From assembly GCF_056712565.1 (NCBI RefSeq), contig NZ_CM160072.1: DNA of 64,000 bases; one strand, written 5' to 3'. How positions within the stretch are numbered: the stretch's first letter is position 1; every line of letters begins with the position of its first letter. The notes under the pieces were generated by a model. The model did not search any database and had not been told where the DNA came from. It worked only from the letters and a program-made list of their open reading frames with translations. A program made the position numbers and the translations under genes. This document shows, in pieces, positions 37,203 through 37,865 of this stretch.

Positions 37203-37865
37203 ATGTTGCGCATTATCGATACAGAAACCTGCGGTTTGCAGGGAGGGATCGTAGAGATTGCCTCTGTTGATGTCATTGACGGAAAAATCGTCAATCCCAT
37301 GAGCCACCTGGTGCGTCCCGATCGTCCTATTAGTCCACAGGCGATGGCGATTCATCGCATCACCGAAGCCATGGTCGCCGATAAACCGTGGATTGAAGAT
37401 GTGATCCCGCACTATTACGGTAGTGAATGGTATGTCGCGCATAACGCCAGCTTTGACCGCCGCGTACTGCCTGAAATGCCCGGTGAGTGGATTTGCACTA
37501 TGAAACTGGCCCGTCGTTTGTGGCCAGGGATCAAGTACAGCAATATGGCGCTATATAAAACACGGAAGCTCAATGTACAGACGCCGCCGGGCCTGCATCA
37601 TCACCGCGCGTTGTATGACTGTTATATCACCGCCGCGTTGCTTATCGATATTATGAACACCTCTGGCTGGACGGCAGAACAGATGGCCGATATCACCGGA
37701 CGTCCATCGTTGATGACGACCTTCACCTTTGGCAAATACCGTGGCAAAGCGGTTTCCGACGTTGCCGAACGCGATCCGGGCTATCTGCGCTGGTTGTTTA
37801 ATAACCTCGACAGCATGAGCCCGGAGCTGCGTTTAACACTGAAACATTATCTGGAAAATACTTAA
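37203..37865 (+). CDS. exoX: DEDDh 3'-5' exodeoxyribonuclease X
   Basis: 220-aa [27 protein letters not shown]... (Exo I motif DTETCG). Confidence 0.85.

Follow-up and report, generated by a model that had tools for sequence, protein, structure and literature searches.

In 2019, Ju and colleagues reportedly described intrinsic terminators that act in both directions, and programmed collisions of polymerases, between convergent genes; termination by Rho of untranslated or antisense read-through RNA is said to have been found by Peters and colleagues in 2012. Coding sequences that overlap at their ends have also been surveyed. Four base pairs is the modal overlap length, and a convergent pair can have both its stops in a single tetramer, CTAA, TTAA, CTAG or TTAG (Lillo & Krakauer 2007, Biol Direct 2:22). 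In E. coli, 58 convergent overlaps were counted, and an intrinsic terminator was predicted in only 20% of the convergently overlapping genes (Lillo & Krakauer 2007).

The excludon concept comes from Listeria. Table 1 of ExcludonFinder (NAR 2025, PMC12288877) lists 165 convergent excludons of E. coli MG1655, each found in 50% or more of 58 RNA-seq sets for that strain, and exoX-ptrB is one of them. As a group, excludon pairs are co-expressed less often in single cells (PMC12288877).

Here the exoX/ptrB junction was analysed in a stretch of 64,000 nucleotides of DNA (the window). We consider it likely that this is a compact tail-to-tail junction of two unrelated housekeeping genes, whose stop codons turn over neutrally and whose lack of separation is tolerated through Rho termination.

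Geometry of the exoX/ptrB overlap

Both exoX and ptrB are genuine protein-coding genes, on opposite strands and tail to tail (Table 1). ExoX matched its NCBIfam model, NF005937, with 463 bits (cut-off 202) over residues 1-219 of 220, and PtrB matched NF007511 with 1597 bits (cut-off 1313) over residues 1-685 of 686. The gene names and strand geometry given in the earlier note are right according to NCBIfam and RefSeq, and its placing of both stop codons in an overlapping TTAA is exact to the base in the sequence, the ORF list and the RefSeq annotation. The window reads ac TTAA tccg at 37860-37869 and, in the exoX frame, ...GAA AAT ACT TAA tcc... at 37854-37868. Four bases (37862-37865) are common to both CDSs and two to both stop codons, which lie one base apart inside TTAA; the pair thus belongs fully to the 4-nt YTAR class of convergent overlaps.

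Table 1. Coordinates of the exoX/ptrB junction and of other tight convergent junctions in the window
Feature	Position	Strand	Basis
exoX CDS, exodeoxyribonuclease X, 220 aa	37203..37865	+	ORF list, NCBIfam NF005937 equivalog, RefSeq
exoX stop TAA	37863-37865	+	sequence
ptrB CDS, oligopeptidase B, 686 aa	37862..39922	-	ORF list, NCBIfam NF007511 equivalog, RefSeq
ptrB stop TAA (reverse complement of tta)	37862-37864	-	sequence
TTAA, self-complementary double-stop tetranucleotide common to both CDSs	37862..37865	.	sequence
23-nt spacer between conserved protein cores	37854..37876	.	C-terminal peptides of 77 species, Escherichia alignment
Back-up stop in ptrB frame (TTA, read as TAA)	37847..37849	-	spans ExoX His-Tyr codons CAT TAT
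Back-up stop TGA in exoX frame, 4 codons past TAA	37875..37877	+	sequence
Small hairpin CCGCT-GACTG-AGCGG just past exoX stop, without U-tract	37867..37881	+	fold compared with shuffles
C-rich, G-poor (rut-like) stretch of exoX-strand RNA, antisense to ptrB	38266..38385	+	base composition
pdeD/yoaE, tail to tail, gap 3 nt	11109/11113		RefSeq annotation
yebW/pphA, tail to tail, gap 0 nt	33397/33398		RefSeq annotation
yebB/ruvC, tail to tail, gap 1 nt	58007/58009		RefSeq annotation

The same 4-nt overlap is annotated by RefSeq in strain ZJ3920 (top of the matches listed for the gene pair), in K-12 MG1655 (b1844/b1845; exoX 1926120..1926782, ptrB 1926779..1928839), where the tetramer is TTAG, and in six further E. 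coli genomes picked across the identity ranking. The gene pair itself was found in 5425 of 5426 complete E. coli genomes. In the eight E. coli annotations examined, the ExoX protein was always identical (WP_000944256.1), and most carried a different allele accession for PtrB. Up to position 62902, ZJ3920 differs from the window at six positions, one of them in ptrB (38853). From 62903 to 64000 the window diverges completely from ZJ3920; a truncated DUF72 pseudogene, which in ZJ3920 precedes a recombinase gene, adjoins the break at 62902/62903, and a strain-specific island probably begins or ends there.

Since the C-terminal tails are not conserved, homology alone cannot fix the protein ends, and one of the stops might not be the true end of its protein, in which case there would be no real overlap. 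Nothing was found in favour of such an annotation artefact, which is extremely improbable: both ORFs run uninterrupted to these stops, their lengths of 220 and 686 residues are those of the curated family models, identical ends are annotated in every genome examined and gene calling, which can choose among starts, has no such choice for stops. The ORFs, the model lengths and the annotations together effectively refute it.

The conserved cores of the two proteins end in ...LRLTLKHYL (ExoX) and ...LAQGTLPG (PtrB), and translation of the spacer between them yields, on either strand, a short C-terminal tail that is not conserved. With the cores just 23 nt apart, overlap is the default state. Random spacers of 23 nt placed between the cores gave a CDS overlap in 96% of trials, -4 being the commonest short outcome (9.7%). 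For a junction so tight, the exoX/ptrB overlap is not above chance.

Tight convergent junctions are also common in the window as a whole. The gaps of its 11 convergent CDS pairs are 119, 3, -4, 143, 45, 0, -4, 55, 131, 216 and 1 nt; with gaps of at most 3 nt (-4, -4, 0, 1 and 3), five of the 11 have no room for a terminator. One of these is mntP/rlmA (mntP 16772..17338, +; rlmA 17335..18144, -), which the earlier note described as having the same architecture as exoX/ptrB, correctly so, as a TTAA is common to both genes.

These sibling junctions behave like exoX/ptrB. Both pdeD-yoaE and yebW-pphA are listed as excludons by ExcludonFinder, and mntP-rlmA is not in that list (PMC12288877). Within K-12 yebB a 3' end of ruvC has been mapped, and K-12 pdeD has a Rho region on its antisense strand. 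The primary Term-seq 3' end of K-12 rlmA (1906214, -) lies in mntP, after a hairpin, GCGTCCAGAGGATCTGGACGC, that is also present in the window, and a Rho region (1906268, score 10.2) is also found inside K-12 mntP. Overlaps between CDSs on the same strand are annotated by RefSeq in the window too, namely yoaL/yoaE (13 nt, 12657-12669) and nudB/aspS (8 nt, 59779-59786).

Drift of the junction across Enterobacteriaceae and within E. coli

Species-representative genomes were scanned, and the best 80 loci, all from Enterobacteriaceae and with an ExoX identity of at least 85%, were compared. Both genes are present in 77 of these best 80 loci, and all junction counts rest on those 77 species. In every one of the 77, exoX and ptrB are tail to tail, with gaps ranging from -19 to +38 nt. 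A gap of -4 nt is found in 34 species, -19 nt in 22 and 0 nt in eight, and gaps of -15, -14 and -10 nt occur in one species each. The gap is positive in the other ten, at +2 (one species), +3 (two), +6 (two), +10 (one), +12 (three) and +38 nt (one). The junction thus lies within 12 nt in 76 of the 77 species. Past the conserved cores, the tails of these species differ both in sequence and in number of residues.

The 34 species with a gap of -4 nt have TTAA (27), CTAG (three), CTAA (three) or TTAG (one) as the tetramer. The share of TTAA (27/34) is about that predicted from the preference for TAA over TAG. Selection on TTAA itself was ruled out, because this share fits the TAA preference and both TTAA and TTAG occur within E. 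coli.

In all 22 species with a gap of -19 nt, ptrB ends at the back-up stop (37847-37849 in the window), and in 18 of the 22 the exoX stop is TGA. When exoX ends in TGA the stop of ptrB is destroyed, so that ptrB is extended by five codons to its back-up stop, which consists of the conserved ExoX His-Tyr codons (CAY TAY) read as TAR on the opposite strand. An exoX TGA together with a five-codon ptrB extension matches the prediction of simple point-mutation turnover. All single substitutions in TTAA were analysed, and none parts the two genes: the overlap is either kept at -4 (CTAA, TTAG) or lengthened to -16, -19 or -31. Substitutions that destroy the exoX stop lead to the -16 overlap, via the TGA at 37875..37877.

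The fourth base of the tetramer is polymorphic in E. coli, being TTAA or TTAG. The exact 80-nt haplotype of the window (TTAA) was found in 233 E. coli genomes and the K-12 80-nt haplotype (TTAG) in 2218, and eight sampled E. coli sequences comprise three with TTAA and five with TTAG. Diversity among these eight was 0.033 in the spacer (37854..37876), compared with 0.015 over the whole pair. The proposal that the junction is a unique diversity hot spot is only partly true, as its diversity is two to three times the mean and other ptrB windows are equally high. Variation in the tetramer and in the tails fits neutral stop drift inside an unconstrained spacer.

A compact exoX/ptrB junction would be produced by intergenic shrinkage together with neutral stop-codon turnover. 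The spacer of about 23 nt would be translated both ways as unconstrained tails, each ORF closing at its first in-frame stop, and TTAA (generally YTAR) would be one sequence that supplies both stops at once. Against this neutral view, a tight junction in 76 of 77 species from the best 80 loci could reflect selection and not only deletion bias.

Transcript ends and antisense RNA

For normal termination of translation, an mRNA has to reach beyond its own stop codon. Every functional exoX or ptrB mRNA is therefore antisense to the 3' end of its partner: an mRNA carrying its own stop already covers codons of the partner and cannot end before the partner ORF. The earlier note's claim that each transcript extends antisense into the other gene is borne out by this geometry, by the ExcludonFinder listing and, on the exoX strand, by a Rho region 471 nt into ptrB. 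Overlap of the transcripts in vivo, which describes a convergent excludon, is seen at this pair in published data only.

A scan for the terminator consensus found no intrinsic terminator at the exoX/ptrB junction. A bidirectional intrinsic terminator hidden in the coding tails, with the hairpin at 37867-37881 halting both polymerases near the junction, is very improbable. The small GC hairpin does lie just past the exoX stop, and on the ptrB strand UAUUUU follows 7 nt after it. On the + strand its fold gave z = -1.7 in the window and z = -3.2 in the K-12 variant, which thus beats its shuffles; however, the + strand has no U-tract, on the - strand shuffled sequences fold at least as well (z = +0.6 and +1.2) and the hairpin is not kept beyond E. 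coli in the Escherichia alignment. Terminator-like sites within 250 nt downstream are below expectation across 78 loci, with two of the 78 on the exoX strand (5.9 expected from shuffles) and three on the ptrB strand (7.5 expected). No Term-seq 3' end lies inside K-12 1926400-1926999 (Adams et al. 2021), and the read-through ends, in a Rho-dependent manner, about 470 nt further on. The hairpin with A-tract and U-tract, and the 3' ends on both strands, that characterize a bidirectional intrinsic terminator are thus lacking at the junction. The scan, the fold z-scores and the deficit across the 78 loci rule out an intrinsic terminator at or near it.

An Rfam search found no known RNA family at the junction, its only hit being RyeA/SdsR, 3.5 kb away. 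RyeA (SraC, +) and SdsR (RyeB, -) are an overlapping sRNA pair (34185-34329; Rfam scores 176 and 114 bits) between pphA and yebY. Neither exoX nor ptrB is mentioned in the SMRT-Cappable-seq supplements.

With no space for an intergenic terminator and none embedded in either gene, polymerase runs from exoX into antisense ptrB. Published bicyclomycin data show that, in K-12, Rho terminates transcription downstream of exoX. Adams et al. (2021, eLife, Supplementary file 2) place a Rho termination region, classified as ptrB antisense, at 1927253 (+); its upstream/downstream reads change from 82/12 in untreated cells to 140/129 under bicyclomycin, for a Rho score of 6.3 (p = 3.4e-10). This rise in read-through on Rho inhibition is documented on the + strand only, in the published K-12 data. 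The region lies 471 nt past the K-12 exoX stop, at about position 38336 of the window.

Untranslated exoX-strand RNA is C-rich and G-poor around this termination zone and upstream of it, most strongly at +401..+520 (C 0.38-0.40, G 0.17; window 38266-38385). The strongest C>G window of K-12 begins at +431, ahead of the published Rho peak (+471), and in 43 of the 77 species from the best 80 loci the strongest such window falls at +400-499. The stretch at 38266..38385 is a probable Rho loading region, and its rut-like composition probably arises incidentally, from a glycine-rich motif of PtrB that the opposite strand encodes. Untranslated exoX read-through would thus expose a C-rich, G-poor stretch some 400-520 nt on, where Rho would terminate it.

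Transcripts of the ptrB strand would likewise run antisense into exoX. No Rho region was reported on the - strand over exoX (Adams et al. 2021). Next on the - strand in K-12, at the holE/yobA border, come a Term-seq end (1925232, antisense to holE) and a Rho region (1925038, just upstream of yobA; Adams et al. 2021). Over holE itself (36192..36422; region about 36122-36422), antisense RNA apparently exceeds sense RNA (30.7 against 61.2, on our reading of the columns), and p19 dsRNA reads are very high (528-2672 RPM). Read-through from ptrB is one possible source of this antisense RNA.

Double-stranded RNA has been captured from both genes. With p19, dsRNA reads amounted to 46-114 RPM for exoX and 11.5-99 RPM for ptrB, and exoX yielded perfect RNase III-type duplexes of which both strands were captured (Huang et al., mBio 2020). 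These duplexes map to 37234-37386 of the window, in the 5' part of exoX and 480-630 nt from the junction, indicating that antisense RNA spans much of exoX; at such a distance it need not stem from ptrB. No p19 duplex falls at K-12 (U00096.2) 1924400-1924899 among the rows listed. Antisense RNA as a share of sense is about 13-19% in exoX, 17-40% in ptrB and 5% in yobB, if the columns of the p19 study table are read correctly.

In stationary phase, ExoX was the most reduced protein of the rnc-38 mutant, at a median of 0.139x wild type (adjusted p 0.0004, 0.047 and 0.005), and it is absent from the other three proteomics sheets, rnc-14 included (Huang et al. 2020 Table S2). The drop in ExoX is compatible with antisense control and is a lead, not evidence of regulation. 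That read-through from ptrB forms antisense RNA across all of exoX and, with RNase III, sets the level of ExoX, the terminator-free junction being kept for this coupling, appears distinctly unlikely.

A related possibility is that the pair works as a functional convergent excludon, in which the more strongly transcribed gene would repress its partner via polymerase collision and RNase III, and the tight junction would be kept for that. Its listing in the MG1655 excludome (PMC12288877), the tight junction throughout the family, the p19 reads for both genes with the perfect RNase III duplexes from exoX, an antisense share in both genes above that of yobB (on the same reading of the columns) and ExoX at 0.14x wild type in rnc-38 stationary phase are all in keeping with such a role. 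However, nothing constrains the tails, and the exact form of the overlap changes freely; expression of either gene is weak (82 reads per 800 nt); the captured duplexes, within the 5' portion of exoX, lie far from the junction; the proteomic change was seen with one rnc allele only; and ExoX and PtrB have no evident functional link. A functional excludon is therefore unlikely.

No evidence was found for a dedicated regulatory device at the junction, and we infer that the exoX/ptrB overlap has no regulatory role. Under the preferred reading, of neutral turnover at a compact junction, the 3' overlap of transcripts, possible dsRNA and convergent polymerases would be by-products of low-level expression. 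The arrangement may be tolerated because expression of the two genes is weak and Rho ends the read-through, which is untranslated.

The junction among known systems

The overlap is already known, as it is annotated in the reference genome, its class was described in 2007 and overlap of the pair's transcripts was published in 2025. What is added here is the family-wide drift of the double stop, and the finding that a conserved rut-like stretch coincides with the Rho region published for K-12. The drift is illustrated by the passage of TTAA to TTAG, CTAA or CTAG, or by loss of one stop, with a five-codon extension to a back-up stop. As such, exoX/ptrB is a clean example of enterobacterial convergent packing without a terminator, with Rho ending the read-through. 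If ExoX, a mismatch-repair exonuclease, were indeed under antisense control, its regulation would gain a post-transcriptional layer; no result here demonstrates such control.

With the bidirectional terminators and programmed polymerase collisions of Wang et al. (2022 preprint), exoX/ptrB has in common convergence and minimal spacing; unlike them, it has no hairpin flanked by A- and U-tracts. It resembles convergent excludons (PMC12288877) in being a pair of opposite, adjacent genes with 3' transcript overlap. Whereas mutually exclusive expression defines an excludon, the listing of exoX-ptrB rests on an RNA-seq coverage threshold.

There is also a likeness to antisense read-through terminated by Rho (Adams et al. 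2021): the exoX strand shows the same bicyclomycin sensitivity at a C-rich, G-poor stretch, although in exoX/ptrB this is documented on one strand only. Term-seq places the 3' end of rlmA behind a hairpin, about 30 nt into mntP, whereas exoX/ptrB has no mapped 3' end near its junction. The TTAA of mntP/rlmA (17335-17338) has the same form as that of exoX/ptrB, and exoX/ptrB is itself the same as the 4-base convergent YTAR overlaps (Lillo & Krakauer 2007), its stops being offset by one base in TTAA.
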